DNA from: Treponemataceae bacterium
GTDB lineage: Bacteria; Spirochaetota; Spirochaetia; Treponematales; Rectinemataceae
NCBI GenBank assembly: GCA_963667725.2
Contig: CAXXHO010000003.1
Span: 1,600,001-1,664,000, forward strand
Direction: 5' to 3'
Length of the DNA: 64,000 nt
Below are positions 15,001-57,000 of the stretch, piece after piece. Made by a program: the position numbers. How positions within the stretch are numbered: the stretch's first letter is position 1; every line of letters starts with the position of its first letter.

Positions 15001-18000
15001 CTTCCCTGGAACATCATCCGCCTCTCATCGATCTTTTCCGGCCTTCCGCTCGAACTGGACGACGGAGCGACAATCGTCGATATCGGCTCGGGGCCGATGA
15101 CCCTACCGATAGCTCTCTATATCGCCCGCCCCGACCTGCGGAAAAAACAACTCACAATTTACTGCCTGGATAAGACGGAACACATTCTCAAGGTCGGCCA
15201 GACAATTTTCGAGAGTCTCGGCGTCAGGCTTTCCAGCGCCCTGCCCCCCTGGAAAATCATACCCCTGAGACAGCAGTTTGGGTCCTTTCTGCCGGAAAAG
15301 GCTGACCTGCTCACCGCCGCCAATGTCTTCAACGAGTTTTTCTGGAAGAGCAAGACACCGCTCGGCATGCGCGCCCTCCTCACGGCCCGCCAGCTCCTGG
15401 GATACCTGAAGGATTCGGGCTCGATCTTCCTCATGGAACCGGGCGACCCGCGTTCCGGCTCCTTCATCAGCTCGGTCCGCGCCGCCCTGTCGGCCTTTGG
15501 GGCTTTCCCTGTAGCGCCCTGTCCTCACAGCCATTCCTGCCCTATGCCCGGCATTTTCCGCAGCCTTTCCTCGCCAGGCGAGGAACTCCCCACGGGAGCC
15601 TCGTCCAAAAACCTCTCCGACGTCGTCATGCCCAAAAGGCGCGACAAATATCCCTGGTGCCATTTCACCATCGGAACGGAGAGCGCTCCGACATGGCTCA
15701 AGACGCTGTCCGACGAAGCGGGGCTCTCCAAGGACAAACTGGTTTTCTCATATCTATTGTCGACCTTGCCCAGGATGCCCCTCCAGGCGAAAAAGCCGCC
15801 GGAATCTCCAGCTCTGCTGCGCATCGTTTCCGAAGAGTTCCCCCTGCCTAACTTCAAGGCAGGCCGCTATGCCTGCTCGGCAGAGGGCTACAGCCTCGCG
15901 CGCTATTCGCCCCTAAGCTTTGGCTTCGCGAGCGGGGATCTCGTCCGCATGCCTCAGCCAGCCGGCCTTGCCGCGCCAGGCGCCCCGAGGGAAAAGCGCC
16001 CGGCGGGAAAGCCCCAAACGCGTTTAGCCGACATCCTGGACCATCGTCCGATACCCTCGGCCAAGGCCGCCGGCAAGGGCAAAGACATCGATGAAAAATC
16101 GGGAGCGATAATCGTTTCCTATTGACATTAGGGTTCAATCCATATATATTTCGTCTTCGTCAGCAATGACACGGGGGCGTAGCGAAGCTGGTTATCGCGC
16201 TGGCCTGTCAAGCCGGAGATCGCGGGTTCGATACCCGTCGCTCCCGATTCGCCTCTTGGGGCGATCCAACCCGTCAATCAAACTGACGGGTTTTTTTATT
16301 ACGGGCTGTAGCGCAGGGGCTAGCGCGCTTGGTTCGGGACCAAGATGTCGGAGGTTCAAATCCTCTCAGCCCGATTTTATGATAAGCCACTCGAAAGAGT
16401 GGCTTTTTTATTGTCCTACAACAACTTAACGAAAATAAATAACGTTATACGCCACATGTTGCAAAGCTCAAAAAACAGCCCTATTATAGGCAAAAATGAG
16501 GCTCGCGGGGTACAAATGGAGTACATCGTATTTTTTATGCCTCCAGCTCGCGCGCATAACGCTTTTAAGGGAGATAGCCATGGGGACCAAGTACCACCTT
16601 TTTTCACGCGATCGGACCGGAAAGGACGGTAAAATAGTTCGCCGCTGGTACTACTGGTACTGGGGGGAAGATGGCGTAAGGATCAAAAAGGCCGCCGGAC
16701 CTAATGGCAGCGCCCCCCTCCTGAAGAGAGAAGCGCAAGACTACATCGACCAGCTAGATGCCCCTCTAGTAATGCCAGGGCTCATCCCTGCCCTATCTAG
16801 CCCGCCGGCAAGCTTTGCCCCCTATGGAGCACCACGTACATTCAAGGCTTTCGCAGACACTCTCTATCTTCCTGATTCGCAGCATCTCAAGAGGAAAGCG
16901 CTCACCGATGGGGAACCAATCAGTGAAGACACTAGAACAGGGCATCGCAGTCGACTAAAAAACTACCTCATTCCAAAATGGGGCGAATGCTCTTGGGCTA
17001 CGTTTGCAGAACCGGGATTCCCCGATGATTTCACGGATTGGCTTGTTGATCTTGAGAGGATCCCGAAACACAAAGAAGGCACCCGTGTCCCTGATCCAGT
17101 TCCTATCTCCAACTCAACCAGGAATTCTCTTATAGAGACAATGACGATATCCCTAAGGGAAGCGAAACGGGCAAGATTGATCCTACAAGTCCCTGAGTTT
17201 GAGCGATTCAATAGGCTATCTCGTCACCAGGACACCCTTACGAATGAGGAACTGATTAAGCTCTTTCCGGAAGATCCGGATAAGCTCAAGAAAATATGGC
17301 AGCTCGAGGATGGCCGCGACTTGAATACTGGGTTGCTTTTCGGCGCTATGTGTTGTCTCGGAGTGTCGGCGGGGCTTCGATCCGGAGAACTTCGCGCGGT
17401 CTCGGCAGATCAAATAATCCGTACTCGACAACCGGATGGAGCTATGACCTATGGCCTTATAGTTGATAGAGCCTTGAACAGAAATAATGAGATCGCAGGA
17501 CTGAAGAAGGCTAACAAAGAAGATCTTCGCGTCCGTGTTGTCGTTTTATCGGATAAAACCATGCGAATACTTGATATGTACCTAACCAGTATCAAGCACA
17601 AGGAAGGACTACTCTTCCTCCATCGAGGCCAACCGGTTCGGAAAGAGAATCTTGGGAGACGCTGGGCCGGAGGGCTCAAACAAGCGAAGATTCCTTTAAA
17701 AGGGAGGCGGCTTACTCCTCATGCAATGCGGTACACCTACAATACACGCATGAGGATGCTGCTTTCAGAGCAGGTACTCCAGGAGGTAGTCGGACACAGG
17801 TCGGATGCCATGACGGCTCTCTATGATCGGCCTCACCTTGTAGAACGGTTGAAGCAACTATCAGATCAACAAGGTGCTTTCAATAAATTCTGGGGAGAGG
17901 TTAAAGCCATCACCTAAAAGCAGTAATTGTGAAGTGGTTTTCGCGACCGGAGAATTAGTAACTTCTCAAGCATATCAAGGTAATATTTATTTACTACAGC

Positions 18001-54000: not shown

Positions 54001-57000
54001 AATAAGGGAAAGACGCGCCGCTTCTCTTCCCTTTTCGAGCATCTATTCACTCAATAATTCTAACAATATTTTGATTGTTCCAGATAAATCCTAATTGCTG
54101 AGAATTGCTTTTCTTAGTAATGCCATAAAAAATTAGTCCTAAAGAGTAAATAGTTATCAAGTAAAGGAATGAAAAAGTATTTTTGTACAAAAATACTTTT
54201 TATAAAGTTTGGCATATTTCTAATTACAAATAGTAGATTTATTGCAATAATACCTTTATAGCATGGCAGGCGATCATGCTTCTAAACCTTACCCTAACGA
54301 ATATCTCAAGTAATGCCTTTCCCTTACAGCCTTTCCAGACTGTAAGGGAAAGAGGAAGGATAGCATCAAATGAGTGTACCCTTCGCCGAAACAGAATGAA
54401 TACGCTCCAGTAACTTTCCTAAACCCTTGCTATGTATGTCTTTTTGTCATGATAAAGTGCTTACCTGAAAAGTCAATCTGAAAACATTATTTTCTTTTAG
54501 AATAGTTCTAAATATTTCTCTTTTAAATCACTATATAATACTAGATTAGTAACCATTAAGCGAGCCAAGTCTCATGTACAGAACAGTGCAGTGTGTTCAG
54601 AGATTCTCTGCGTTATAAATTGTATATTTTTTCCTCCCATTTGACTTGACGGGTTTTGATTGGCTTTCATAGCGCTCCACCTGATCCTTCCATGTCCTGA
54701 TCACCGCTTCTGGTGTATCCGGCCTTAACCAGGCTTGAAACGCTTCTCCTGCATCTTTCATGCTTTCCATAAACTGATCCTGCAGTTCATAGAAGATCCG
54801 ATGCATCTCCGCGGTACTAGCTTCCGTCTTTCGATAGATATTGATCTTCGATTCCGCTTTCTCAAGGGCATCCAATATCAGCTTGGCATCTTTAAGGTTT
54901 ATGACGTGATACCCATTCCCTGACTGTTCCTTGATTTCCTGTCTCACTGCTTCAAGCTTTGCCTTCTCTTCGTCATTCATCGGTAGTCTCCTTTTCTCTA
55001 TACTTCTTCAGCCGATCAAGTGCGAGCTCATGATACGACGCTTCCTTTTCAAAGCCGATAAAATGCCTTTCTTCAGCCATGGCCGCAATCGCTGTTGTCC
55101 CCGACCCCATGAAAGGGTCAAAGACGACTTCCCCTGGATTAGAGTATGTCCGGACGAGGTACCGGAAGAGTGCAACGGGTTTCTGGGTAGGATGTCTCCC
55201 CGCTCCCCCACCCTCCTTGTTGAAAGGAAGGATGCTCGTCGGATACTTCCCTTCATGCTCGTAGGCGATCTTCCATGTCTTTTTGTAGACTCCCCTTGTC
55301 GAATGCTCCTGCCCTTTGAGCTGCCTGGCCACATGAGAGGCATCCTTCTTCATCTGGGGGTTATATACCGGAAGTCTTCTATAGAACACGAGAATGAGTT
55401 CGTGCTGTCGCATCGGCATTTTATGGGAGTTTAGGAATCCGACGGGGTTTGATTTCACCCAGACCAGGTCATAGCGGAACCATTTTCTATTGGAGTTGAT
55501 CAGATCCGTGGCGAAAGGCTGTGTTGCGGTGATCACCGCGGCGCCGTTAGGTTTCAGAATCCGGAGGAACTCGGTCCACATGAATCCTAAGTCTGGCCGT
55601 TTGTCCCAGGCGCAGTCCGTGACCCCATAAGGGGGATCCGTGAGAACGAGGTCGATTGAACCATCGGGGATCCGTTTGATCCCAACCTCATAGGGAGCTA
55701 GTAAGATTTTGTCGAGCAAAGTTGAGGAAGTCGGCATTGAGGCAGTGTAATATTCTACTACACATTTGTAAAGTAATATTGATTCATCGATAGCTTCATA
55801 AGTGCACATTAAAGGTTAGCTCTGGAGCTTACGATTCCTAGAATGATCTTTAGCAGCCCCATAGTGGTGTACTCTCAGGCGAGCATGACCGGTTAAAATG
55901 AAGTACTTGGGATAGGCTATATGCAACCTGGCTTTTGACCAGGAGGCTCTAGGGTGATTTGACAATACTTACCGTATTGTCAAATTGCAAATAAAACATG
56001 TACCCCATGGAGTACATCATATTTTCTCATCATGTGATTCTGTAAGATTGCCGATTCATTTTACCCAATAAACACAGGGGTATTATAAATCGTGTGTGTA
56101 TATTTCCCCGTTCGGGACCAAGATGTCGGAGGTTCAAATCCTCTCAGCCCGATAAAAGAAAAGCCGCCTTTACGGGCGGCTTTTCTTTTTTGTAGGCGTT
56201 CTCGCATCGGCTTGATCAGTAATATGAAGACATAGCTCTATAATCGTATTGTATCGCCGAATGGCCAGAATACTGGTCGCCATCGGTCGTATAGACCCTA
56301 CAGTGCCGGATAGAATTCAGCGCCGTCGCGCCGACGGCATTCCCGTTGCTGTCGAAGATATCACTTCCGCTTAAGGCTATTGTATTCTGGGAATCGGGAG
56401 CGTTCTGGAAAGAACCTGACGAGAATTTCGTCGAGCTCAATTCGGTTAGCTGGTTAAAAAAATAAACGGATCGACCTATATAGTCGCCGTTGGCGTCGTA
56501 GAACCAAATCCAGCCATTCCGGACGTTGCTGCCTTTCACGGTGAAGGTGGTCAGAAGCTGTCCGCCTGAAAGCGCGAGGCTGTCGACGATTGGCCGCATG
56601 ATAGCTGGAGTGGAGAAAGCGGGGATTGAGGCTGTGGCTTCATCATCAAGACAATAGACATAAGAGTACCCTCCTGTGGATGTAGAGCCAGGTTTTCCCA
56701 TTATGAAGCTATAGGTGTCGCTTTCCCCATTGGTACGCAGTATCTTCGCGGTGAGCGCGCCGATCGGCAGTTCCTTGGGGTTAGCGCCGTACCAGTAACG
56801 AGCCGATCCCCCGACGCTATTAGTGTCCGCATGGAAGTATCTATCTTTATCAATCGTCCAATATAAGTCGGAATTGTCGGGCAGGTAAATCCTTACATAT
56901 TCGATGTCGGACGCGCTAAGGTCTTCCTTAAAAAATACCTCGAAACTATAGGTGAGCGACGGCTTTACATCGCTCCCTGCCGCCCAACGATCGCTTGCCA

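Follow-up and report, generated by a model that had tools for sequence, protein, structure and literature searches.

A phage-derived island at tRNA-Pro in a Treponemataceae bacterium, with two cassette arrays headed by platforms that have a predicted promoter and an attI-like site but no integron integrase gene

Boundaries and backbone of the tRNA-Pro island

The stretch analysed here (the window; 64,000 nucleotides of contig CAXXHO010000003.1, C3 below) carries a tRNA-Pro(cgg) gene at 16302-16374, the 3' end of which forms one copy of a 44-bp direct repeat (attL, 16332..16375, + strand), with the second copy (attR, 56110..56153, + strand) closing a 39.8-kb island. Comparison of the two copies bore out the boundaries proposed in the genome-wide survey's note, with 44 of 44 positions matching and identity ending at both edges. 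A genome of the same genus (G001) presents the exact empty site, aligning to window 5468-16374 and then straight to 56110-59408. Judged from these alignments, the repeats enclose a single integrative element of 39.8 kb, precisely inserted at tRNA-Pro. Arrays and platforms aside, about 19 kb remain, and the GC contrast described earlier between cargo and core was also seen (31-37% in the arrays, 57% in the core).

Just inside attL lies a tyrosine integrase gene with an open reading frame (16496..17917, + strand, 473 aa; PF00589 3e-10, phrog_1 1e-22), whose product shares 21-22% identity with the integrases of two other islands of this genome, a sister island and an island at tRNA-Ala, the latter bounded by a 48-bp repeat that again matched in full (48/48) as claimed. 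A score far under the TIGR02249 cut-off ruled this protein out as an integron integrase (IntI). It is followed by low-GC cargo (18005..21357) in which the covariance model found no attC site, consisting of an IS1595-type transposase fragment (18065-18718), with 95% identical IS copies inside the array of the host's 150-kb integron (on contig C5), and a four-gene ABC-2 transporter-like operon (18781-21357, - strand). The regulatory and replication genes comprise a CI/RstR-type repressor (23029..23430, - strand; phrog_4 8.5e-8, NF041951 1e-4, under its cut-off), an HTH_17 excisionase-family protein (25572..26045, + strand; PF12728 2.6e-14, TIGR01764 over its cut-off), a 524-aa ParB with ParB_N and HTH_ParB domains (132 bits against TIGR00180, cut-off 58) together with a 283-aa phage protein sharing 65-73% identity with its counterparts on two IMG/VR phage contigs (28373..30795, + strand), and a replication initiator, Rep (33847..35136, + strand; phrog_2149 1.5e-33), whose gene contains 11-bp-spaced repeats (34248-34322, repeat family D10). 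At the far end, a 127-aa protein and an N6/N4 DNA methyltransferase (54597..55809, - strand; PF01555 1.6e-36, phrog_67 3e-71) are encoded between platform X' (described below) and attR. The gene set listed by the survey thus stood for integrase, HTH_17, ParB and Rep, whereas the RusA-like assignment was weak (E 2e-5).

The claim that virion genes are missing held as well: none of 26 scanned proteins matched PHROGs head, tail or packaging families, and the terminase, portal, capsid and tail genes of an intact temperate prophage were absent from this set. Comparison with the two IMG/VR contigs, L061 and L062, revealed a conserved gene order for the island genes at 22.2, 28.1, 29.9-30.8, 31.4-31.9 and 34.6-35.1 kb, with 67-74% identity; downstream of these, the phages have HNH, terS, terL, portal, protease, capsid and adaptor genes (terS and protease called in L061 only). 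Because its core is colinear with both contigs, the island is, on gene content and order, a phage derivative that has lost its late, virion genes. Searching the genome with the L061 late proteins revealed no prophage of this potential helper kind, with six of seven proteins finding no match and the protease finding only a 21%-identical gene elsewhere.

The sister island shares a core that begins at 25530 and is 78-93% identical, the figure given previously. Array A (below) sits between two direct repeats of 70% identity, E (35076..35293, + strand), which holds the 3' end of rep and downstream sequence, and E' (41835-42051). The same layout recurs in the sister island and at a third related locus, G002, which holds only a stump of the element, such that conserved flanks enclose differing cassettes in all three, a pattern of cassette turnover. 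Beyond E' lies block Y, of about 92 nt (42168..42259, + strand), with 90% identity to its copy in the sister island and 87% to L061; in this phage it sits at the HNH/terS junction and includes the final 27 codons of the HNH gene. Y is present in both islands and in G002, where homology extends about 200 nt past it, and it is possibly a packaging site, judging by this position. Together with the phage remnant that separates the arrays, the duplication E/E' shows, as read from sequence, a history of rearrangement.

Two cassette arrays and their cargo

A covariance model built from the island sites recovered the 15 attC sites of the survey's note as 15 distinct minus-strand sites, all within 35340-53908 at E <= 9e-10, the next unrelated match having E 0.12; 13 of its 20 predicted pairs have compensatory changes. 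A 16th, degenerate site (about 44620-44690) was recognised by eye only. Trained on island sites alone, this model scored host sites equally high, up to 133 bits, in agreement with the statement that the island attC are of host type. The absence of an integron integrase from the island was likewise confirmed: contig C3 has no TIGR02249 match over the cut-off, and tblastn of the host IntI proteins against the window gave only E > 1, with no trace of intI or of an intI pseudogene. Both arrays are therefore clusters of attC in one orientation with no intI or pseudogene nearby, and the intI gene of a complete integron is lacking.

Array A (35339..41047, - strand) holds five cassettes, encoding a 153-aa protein, a TIR-like protein of 491 aa, DUF6150 with Abi_alpha, a SAM-MTase and a 271-aa HSDR_N_2 protein, with attC sites at 40241-40364, 38536-38661, 37275-37379 and 36345-36468 and a short terminal site at 35339-35398. 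Array B (42736..54063, - strand) holds 12, with ten clear attC and one degenerate: one cassette is gene-less, and the others encode proteins of 181 aa, 364 aa and 110 aa, DinB-like, dCMP-deaminase-like, HAD, GNAT, NUDIX and PAS-HD proteins and two SAM-MTases. An IS with a 518-aa DDE transposase (49658..51300, - strand) lies inside array B, 2 nt from the attC at 51303-51419, and has 100% identical copies at C5:544205-545847, within the host array, and at C5:701766-703408.

The cargo of this island had been described as anti-phage systems, but all strong PADLOC matches quoted sit in the two other islands (Hachiman, DUF4297-HerA, SoFic, NucC-like, PD-T4-6 and PDC-M36A). The 17 cassettes of the tRNA-Pro island encode mainly small enzymes, with weak defence-library matches for Abi_alpha, TIR-like, NUDIX and deaminase proteins (E 1e-6 to 3e-9). 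PADLOC on 30 window proteins revealed no complete known defence system among these cassettes, whose matches were partial or generic (PDC-S47 2.7e-9, PDC-S35 5e-7, PDC-S07 3e-6, dCTPase 9e-7), and the mad2 matches in the window are generic SAM-MTases. Complete known systems do occur among the cassettes of the two other islands, where the Hachiman, DUF4297-HerA, SoFic and NucC-like genes each have an attC after them; the only attC for PD-T4-6 is weak (E 0.0015) and stands two genes, or about 1.6 kb, further on.

Platforms that head the arrays, and the host integrons

Both arrays begin at a platform, and these promoter/attI platforms without intI, which the survey's note missed, are the most distinctive feature of the island. 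Platform X (41043..41611, - strand) heads array A with the predicted promoter TTGACT-16-TATGAT (41463-41436), a 17-nt leader box (41368-41384, ATTCTGTTTCGGCGAAG) and an attI-like site with crossover at 41048/41047 (CCAATTATTG|TTAGA). Platform X' (54059..54622, - strand) heads array B in the same way, with TTGACT-16-TATCAT (54476-54449), the box at 54381-54397 and crossover at 54064/54063 (AAAATATTG|TTAGA). In each, an AT-rich spacer of about 300 nt stands between box and attI-like core (...TATTG|TTA) in place of intI, and the three platforms X, X' and X'' (the last from the sister island) can be aligned for about 570 nt, the alignment ending just past TATTGTTA, where the cassette begins. The attI-like feature of a complete integron, a first cassette joined at G|TT, can thus be read at X and X' (...TATTG|TTAGA).

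Across the genome, the box occurs seven times, three copies lying upstream of intI genes and four heading island arrays, and TTGACTT-N16-TAT..T stands about 45 nt upstream in all seven. Among 34 loci with the box from other genomes and metagenomes, an IntI homologue follows in ten (32-78% identity; two are partial because the locus ends). The platform is thus, on sequence comparison, homologous to intI upstream regions. The four platforms without intI, one per larger island array (the small sister-island array and the G002 array have none), share the attI variant TATTG|TTA against the host's AAATG|TTAG, and three of the four share a spacer. A search of 68 other genomes of the family did not turn up the X spacer, so the platform family appears narrow. 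Promoter-like sites are no commoner in the platform regions than in shuffles, so the predicted promoter rests on its conservation, with 10 of 12 consensus matches kept in seven copies. The attI-like motif CCAATN4GTTAGR, of which X' is not an exact match, proves little by itself, as it was found five times in the genome against about three expected (an estimate from base composition, not from shuffles).

Where a single host integron had been described, we found three complete ones: three of 11 TIGR02249 matches in the genome exceed the cut-off, each adjoining a co-oriented array, and in all three intI is transcribed towards attI and the cassettes. The genome has 266 distinct attC (C5 170, C1 38, C7 32, C3 26). 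Given the genome's contamination estimate of 6%, contigs C1 and C7, which carry two of the three intI genes, may come from another cell.

The earlier statement that island and chromosomal arrays share no cassette did not hold for the gene-less first cassette behind X', which has 12 matching places in C5. In all eight C5 copies inspected the cassette starts as ...AAGCCAATG|TTAGAATTATT, and in the island as ...AAAATATTG|TTAGAATTATT, such that its boundary with X' falls on the canonical G|TT, in the way its C5 relatives start behind an attC. This cassette family is therefore shared, and the junction with X' is, at sequence level, direct evidence of IntI-type insertion. Other cassettes common to island and host arrays are only 67-70% identical.

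Origin, proposed cargo loading and possible spread

We consider it probable that this is a phage-derived element of tRNA-Pro that has lost its virion half and carries two arrays headed by platforms without intI, loaded by host IntI in trans. Its backbone corresponds to the part of an HK97-like temperate phage that serves lysogeny and replication (integrase, repressor, excisionase-type HTH, ParB and Rep), with the entire virion half gone and the two arrays occupying and surrounding its former place. Host IntI would insert cassettes at the platform G|TT and exchange them at attC, and the platform promoter would drive the first cassettes, possibly on the same signal as intI. Having no intI, the island probably relies on the integrases of the three host integrons to take up cargo. 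We infer from these features that IntI would act at the island sites today, that the promoter would function and be co-regulated with intI, and that the island would be mobile.

It is doubtful that the island is instead a dead prophage remnant, immobile, with virion genes decayed in place and attC clusters, without a joint role, left by off-target IntI or rearrangement. Such decay would fit the colinear core without late genes, the phage remnants E' and Y between the arrays, the IS copies in and beside them and the stump in G002, and CALINs (attC clusters without integron integrase) can arise in this way (PMC4889954). However, the integrase gene has kept an open frame and the 44-bp repeats agree at every position. 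A propagating form is suggested by two copies that, despite divergence to 78-93%, keep the same layout without late genes, and a conserved promoter, box and attI platform at all four larger arrays is not expected from random secondary-site insertion. We also think it quite unlikely that the arrays are pieces of host integrons moved by IS or homologous recombination, the platform being an integron front end that lost intI. Integrase loss or translocation is an accepted origin of CALINs (PMC11389934, PMC4889954), the promoter and box of the platform have homologues upstream of intI, the IS in array B has a 100% identical counterpart within the C5 array, and the host arrays also hold IS1595-type copies. 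Yet no trace of intI is left, the attI variant of four platforms and the spacer of three argue for one old lineage without intI rather than four recent breaks, and the shared cassettes, the gene-less one aside, stand at only 67-70% identity.

We judge it unlikely that the island is a cos-type phage satellite, with Y as a helper packaging site, a related HK97-like HNH-terminase helper packaging it and arrays filling it to capsid size. The island has the integrase, att repeats, regulation and replication genes and lack of virion genes of a satellite. Y is kept in both islands and G002, lies in the phage at the HNH/terS junction and is more similar to L061 (87%) than neighbouring genes are (70-74%), and 39.8 kb is near the 36.7 and 38.2 kb of the phage contigs, which may not be full genomes. 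By analogy, SaPIbov4/5 (PMC5052747) are described as integrative elements that encode regulation and replication functions, lack a terminase and carry a conserved cos site of the helper in the packaging region, but the tRNA-Pro island has about three times their size, no interference genes were recognised in it, and the packaging role of Y is putative. The overlap of Y with 27 HNH codons means that its conservation in phage may reflect coding constraint, and the G002 homology runs about 200 nt beyond it. The genome search found no L061-type helper prophage, no terS or capsid-redirection or remodelling gene was recognised in the island, and its size is far over the 7-20 kb given as typical (PMC13376191). 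More speculative, and improbable in our estimation, is a lineage with two helpers, in which platforms sharing the intI promoter and box replaced virion genes, a stress signal for the host integrase would turn on the island cargo too and make it available for exchange, and Y and a phage-like size kept by the arrays would let a related helper phage spread the entire cassette library to new hosts.

The island coincides in part with known systems. CALINs (Cury et al. 2016, PMC4889954), for which mobilisation in trans has been proposed (PMC11389934), are described, like the island, as having at least two attC in one orientation with no intI or pseudogene near and complete integrons elsewhere in the genome, whereas the four larger island arrays retain a conserved predicted promoter, leader box and attI-like site homologous to the intI upstream region and ride on tRNA-integrated, phage-derived islands. 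Treponema-type 'inverted' chromosomal integrons (Wu et al. 2013, PMC3607928) resemble the host's in that intI reads towards attI and cassettes, and resemble the island in attC type and in an attI core ending in GTTAG, but the platforms lack intI and have the variant core TATTG|TTA. Single-cassette compact defence systems, as in the two other islands, are described for sedentary integrons acting as anti-phage banks (bioRxiv 10.1101/2024.07.02.601686); in contrast, the tRNA-Pro island is thin in defence, and the arrays lie on putatively mobile islands rather than within the sedentary integron. An integron integrase is also reported to insert cassettes outside its own attI, at attG (bioRxiv 10.1101/2022.09.11.507474), whereas the target here is a conserved four-copy platform with its own predicted promoter rather than a random site. 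In the literature searched we found no published description of such promoter/attI platforms without intI.

Cassette arrays without an integrase are commonly seen as what is left of broken integrons. In this genome, which has three complete integrons, four such arrays on three tRNA-integrated islands retain a conserved predicted promoter, leader box and attI-like docking site. If host integrases serve these platforms, cassettes of sedentary integrons would gain a route onto elements able to leave the chromosome, and that route, if true, would cover the complete defence systems of the two other islands. The box common to intI and the orphan platforms is also a concrete candidate element in the regulation of these spirochaete-type integrons.

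Insertion at tRNA-Pro and the island core

ARAGORN called a tRNA-Asp and a tRNA-Pro(cgg) gene, the latter at window 16302-16374, and Rfam at gathering thresholds matched these two tRNAs and no other family. The 44 bases at 16332-16375 recur without mismatch at 56110-56153, with identity ending at both edges, and no other direct repeat of such length appeared when the island was compared with itself, internal elements aside. Genome G001, from the same genus, aligns at 87% to window 5468-16374 and then directly at 86% to 56110-59408, with both tRNAs present and nothing in between. 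This empty site and the 44-base repeats therefore identify the 39.8 kb as a precise insertion at the 3' end of tRNA-Pro, just as the genome-wide survey's note had proposed. Contig-run joints were seen at attC repeats alone, and these are uninformative on excision because other arrays have the same repeats; loose ends at 56110 showed low agreement and resemble other tRNA genes. Single cassettes occur at 95-99% identity on freshwater and wastewater metagenome contigs, in one case with attC on both sides. Pieces of platform X (described below) and of the methyltransferase near the right end are present at 94-96% in these two metagenome runs, which shows that other samples contain a related island (matched window stretches 36438-37288, 40336-40828, 41200-41472, 46206-46845 and 55032-55818).

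The left part of the island encodes a 473-aa tyrosine integrase, an IS1595-type transposase fragment with a low-GC ABC-2 transporter-like operon, a CI/RstR-like repressor, an HTH_17 excisionase-family protein, a ParB (ParB_N plus HTH_ParB), a RusA-like protein and a replication initiator (phrog_2149, 1.5e-33). PHROGs head, tail or packaging families matched 0 of 26 scanned island proteins, and the survey's description of a core gene set lacking virion genes thus held on domain and PHROGs matches, with the RusA-like assignment weak (E 2e-5). Within the rep gene, at window 34206-34322, a motif of ~31 nt occurs six times, five of the copies spaced 11 bp apart (34248-34322), an arrangement suggestive of a replication origin whose iterons lie within the initiator gene. 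Against species genomes, Rep matched only in its N-terminal ~107-178 residues, at 56-85% identity and in Burkholderiales and Xanthobacter, the 85% figure applying to 62 residues only, in a locus ending at a contig edge. Residues 1-107 (window 33847-34170) are 63-76% identical to these proteins, far closer than the remainder of Rep, which suggests that the N-terminus is a widely exchanged DNA-binding module. As these matches cover the N-terminal part only, they were dropped as a clue to the island. A ParB query against IMG/VR found no relative, and two Atlas look-ups returned hypothetical proteins of tailed phages and spirochaetes and nothing else.

The integrases of this island, the sister island (C3 ~501.4-534.2 kb) and the third island (C3:337282-364387), whose targets are tRNA-Pro, tRNA-Glu and tRNA-Ala, respectively, are 21-22% identical to each other. 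No fragment of tRNA-Ser or tRNA-Glu that might form an inner or outer repeat of the sister island was found there at 18 nt, nor in this island at 14 nt, which leaves the sister island's left end still without a defining repeat. A tRNA-Ser(cga) gene lies inside the sister island (C3:515931-516014; L005:16931-17014), exactly where the core shared with this island starts (window 25530 = C3:515955), and no fragment of at least 14 nt matching it was found in this island; possibly the shared core was formerly an element of its own at tRNA-Ser.

Phage relatives and the layout of the cassette locus

Two IMG/VR contigs, 36.7 and 38.2 kb long, encode relatives of the 283-aa protein beside ParB, 73% and 65% identical to it. 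These phage contigs, L061 and L062, carry several island genes, colinear and 67-74% identical at the nucleotide level, followed by late genes, which in L061 are HNH endonuclease, terS, terL, portal, protease, major head protein and head-tail adaptor, and in L062 are the same minus terS and protease, both absent among the ORFs called and scanned. The genome under study has no relatives of these late proteins, bar a 21%-identity protease match elsewhere. Judged by gene order and nucleotide identity, this island derives from an L061/L062-type phage whose late half it lacks. At the position that those genes take in the phages, the island has, beyond a short phage-like block that we call Y, cassette array B, platform X', a gene for a 127-aa protein and a DNA methyltransferase.

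Block Y (window 42168-42259, ~92 nt) shares 90% identity with the sister island and 87% with L061, and is also found in genome G002. In L061 it lies at the HNH/terS junction. Y could, by analogy, be a retained packaging site of the kind described for cos-type SaPIs in PMC5052747; this remains a lead because Y overlaps the last codons of the phage HNH gene.

Array A is placed between E (35076-35293) and E' (41835-42051), diverged direct copies of the rep 3' end region that are 70% identical, and Y follows E'. The sister island has E-type copies at C3:505402-505669, 504647-504757 and 501591-501858, including a third, partial copy. The order E, cassettes, E', Y is found with different cassettes in both the sister island and G002, where it lies beside tRNA-Glu. 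This marks the cassette locus as an old feature of the island family, with a content that has changed. Repeats of the rep 3' end, 220-270 bp long, thus flank a small cassette array on both sides in three loci; one possibility is that they arose from tandem island copies followed by deletion.

Host-type attC sites and cassette content

A covariance model built from 15 minus-strand sites (20 pairs, 13 with compensatory changes) and searched with filters off recovered those 15 sites at E <= 9e-10, all in 35340-53908, and nothing more below E 0.1 except their opposite-strand echoes; an additional degenerate attC near 44620-44690 was visible by eye only. Host-array sites scored up to 133 bits with this island-trained model, as high as the training sites, and tblastn gave no trace of IntI within the window (E > 1), in agreement with the survey's reading of 15 attC sites of the host integron type with no integrase of their own. 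Profile searching revealed 266 distinct attC sites in the genome, 170 on C5, 38 on C1, 32 on C7 and 26 on C3, the last divided into 14 in this island (the covariance model alone adds its short site to these), then 7, 4 and 1.

The survey's note had spoken of one host integron. Three genes passed the TIGR02249 cut-off, one each on C5, C1 and C7, and each adjoins an array in the same orientation, which is the arrangement described for Treponema integrons (PMC3607928). The host thus has three complete integrons, at C5:396.8-551.8 kb, C1:0.4-35.3 kb and C7:37.1-64.3 kb (about 170, 38 and 32 attC), with the reservation that the genome is rated at 6% contamination and membership of C5, C1 and C7 in one cell is therefore not provable. 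The C1 array reaches ~400 bases from the contig start and may be cut there.

The 17 cassettes of this island encode three SAM-methyltransferases, a DUF6150 and Abi_alpha pair, a TIR-like 491-aa protein, PAS-HD, NUDIX, GNAT, HAD, dCMP-deaminase-like, DinB-like and HSDR_N_2 proteins and four family-less proteins; one further cassette is gene-less. PADLOC gave weak or generic matches only for these cassettes, the top non-generic one being PDC-S47 at 2.7e-9. The other two islands yielded SoFic (7e-114), NucC-like (4e-16), DUF4297 (8e-138) with HerA (8.5e-274), PD-T4-6 (9e-33), PDC-M36A (4e-22) and HamA (1e-121) with HamB (8e-245), and an attC follows each of these strong matches except PD-T4-6, for which there is only a weak one (E 0.0015) ~1.6 kb and two genes downstream. 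The anti-phage cassette arrays that the survey's note had described are therefore real but belong to those two islands, not to this one. An insertion sequence at window 49658-51300, which codes for a DDE transposase of 518 aa, is separated from an attC by 2 nt. Copies inside the C5 array and at C5:701.8 kb match it at 100% and a C4 copy at 90%, and this element may prefer attC sites.

Platforms shared with intI upstream regions

Arrays A and B are headed by X (41043-41611) and X' (54059-54622), two copies of a 570-bp element that are 71% identical. On the cassette strand both end ...TATTG|TTAGA, with similarity ceasing exactly where the cassette starts, and the three attI regions of the host, with the ending ...CTGTCCAATAAATG|TTAGR, part from one another at this position too. 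A further platform, X'', heads the large sister-island array and ends CCAATTATTG|TTATA. The island platforms have a ~300-nt AT-rich spacer in the place of intI and their own variant of the attI core; the spacer was absent from the 68 other genomes of the family searched. The only other genome match to the attI-like motif CCAATN4GTTAGR, at C3:338998 in the tRNA-Ala island, is remote from the array there and points the other way, and is probably due to chance because about 3 matches are expected.

The first cassette behind X' is gene-less, ~300 nt long (window 53761-54063), and includes a long 148-nt attC. In the C5 integron 12 places match it at 76-91% identity, and each of the 8 copies inspected among these starts ...AAGCCAATG|TTAGAATTATT. 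The junction behind X' is ...AAAATATTG|TTAGAATTATT, from where the island sequence runs on in this cassette at up to 91% identity. A cassette family is thus common to the island and the chromosomal integron, so the view that island and chromosomal arrays share no cassette does not stand, and the junction is, on its sequence, a signature of IntI-type insertion at G|TT.

Within X lies an invariant 17-18-nt box, ATTCTGTTTCGGCGAAG, with 7 copies in the genome, of which 4 head island arrays (X, X', X'' and one in the tRNA-Ala island) and 3 lie just upstream of the three intI. All 7 aligned copies have TTGACTT-N16-TAT..T ~45 nt upstream of the box, and this is the best promoter-like site of each island region (10 of 12 matches), in a background where such sites are not above chance in number. 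Of 34 loci examined elsewhere (26 stretches of metagenome and 8 sites in further genomes of the order), 10 have an IntI homologue behind the box and its promoter. The 18-mer also occurs without IntI in L033, L042 and L049; L042, the only one of these inspected, was ruled out as an integron-related locus, having a CRISPR array downstream and no attC. The box falls in a possible hairpin whose stem varies between copies (window 41340-41412 and 54353-54425, minus strand; also loci L001, L003 and L051), for which RNAalifold support is weak (11 pairs, 4 with compensatory changes). The box, which follows a conserved promoter, may act as a regulatory site or as a leader structure in this type of integron. 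Since box and promoter are common to intI upstream regions and platforms, the island arrays carry this integron type's front end but no integrase.

CALINs and their proposed origins (PMC4889954), CALIN mobilisation in trans and presence on conjugative elements (PMC11389934), defence cassettes in chromosomal and mobile integrons (bioRxiv 10.1101/2024.07.02.601686 and 10.1101/2024.07.02.601719) and off-site cassette insertion (bioRxiv 10.1101/2022.09.11.507474) are all in print. Our literature search returned no account of conserved intI-less promoter/attI platforms on phage-derived islands, and the bioRxiv supplements may list such CALINs. The island is best described as CALIN/integron arrays on an integrative, phage-derived island; of the survey's overall interpretation, the intI-less tRNA island with host-type attC and no virion genes is retained and the anti-phage cargo of this island is not. 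The chief interest lies in the orphan platform that is common to the island arrays and the intI upstream regions.
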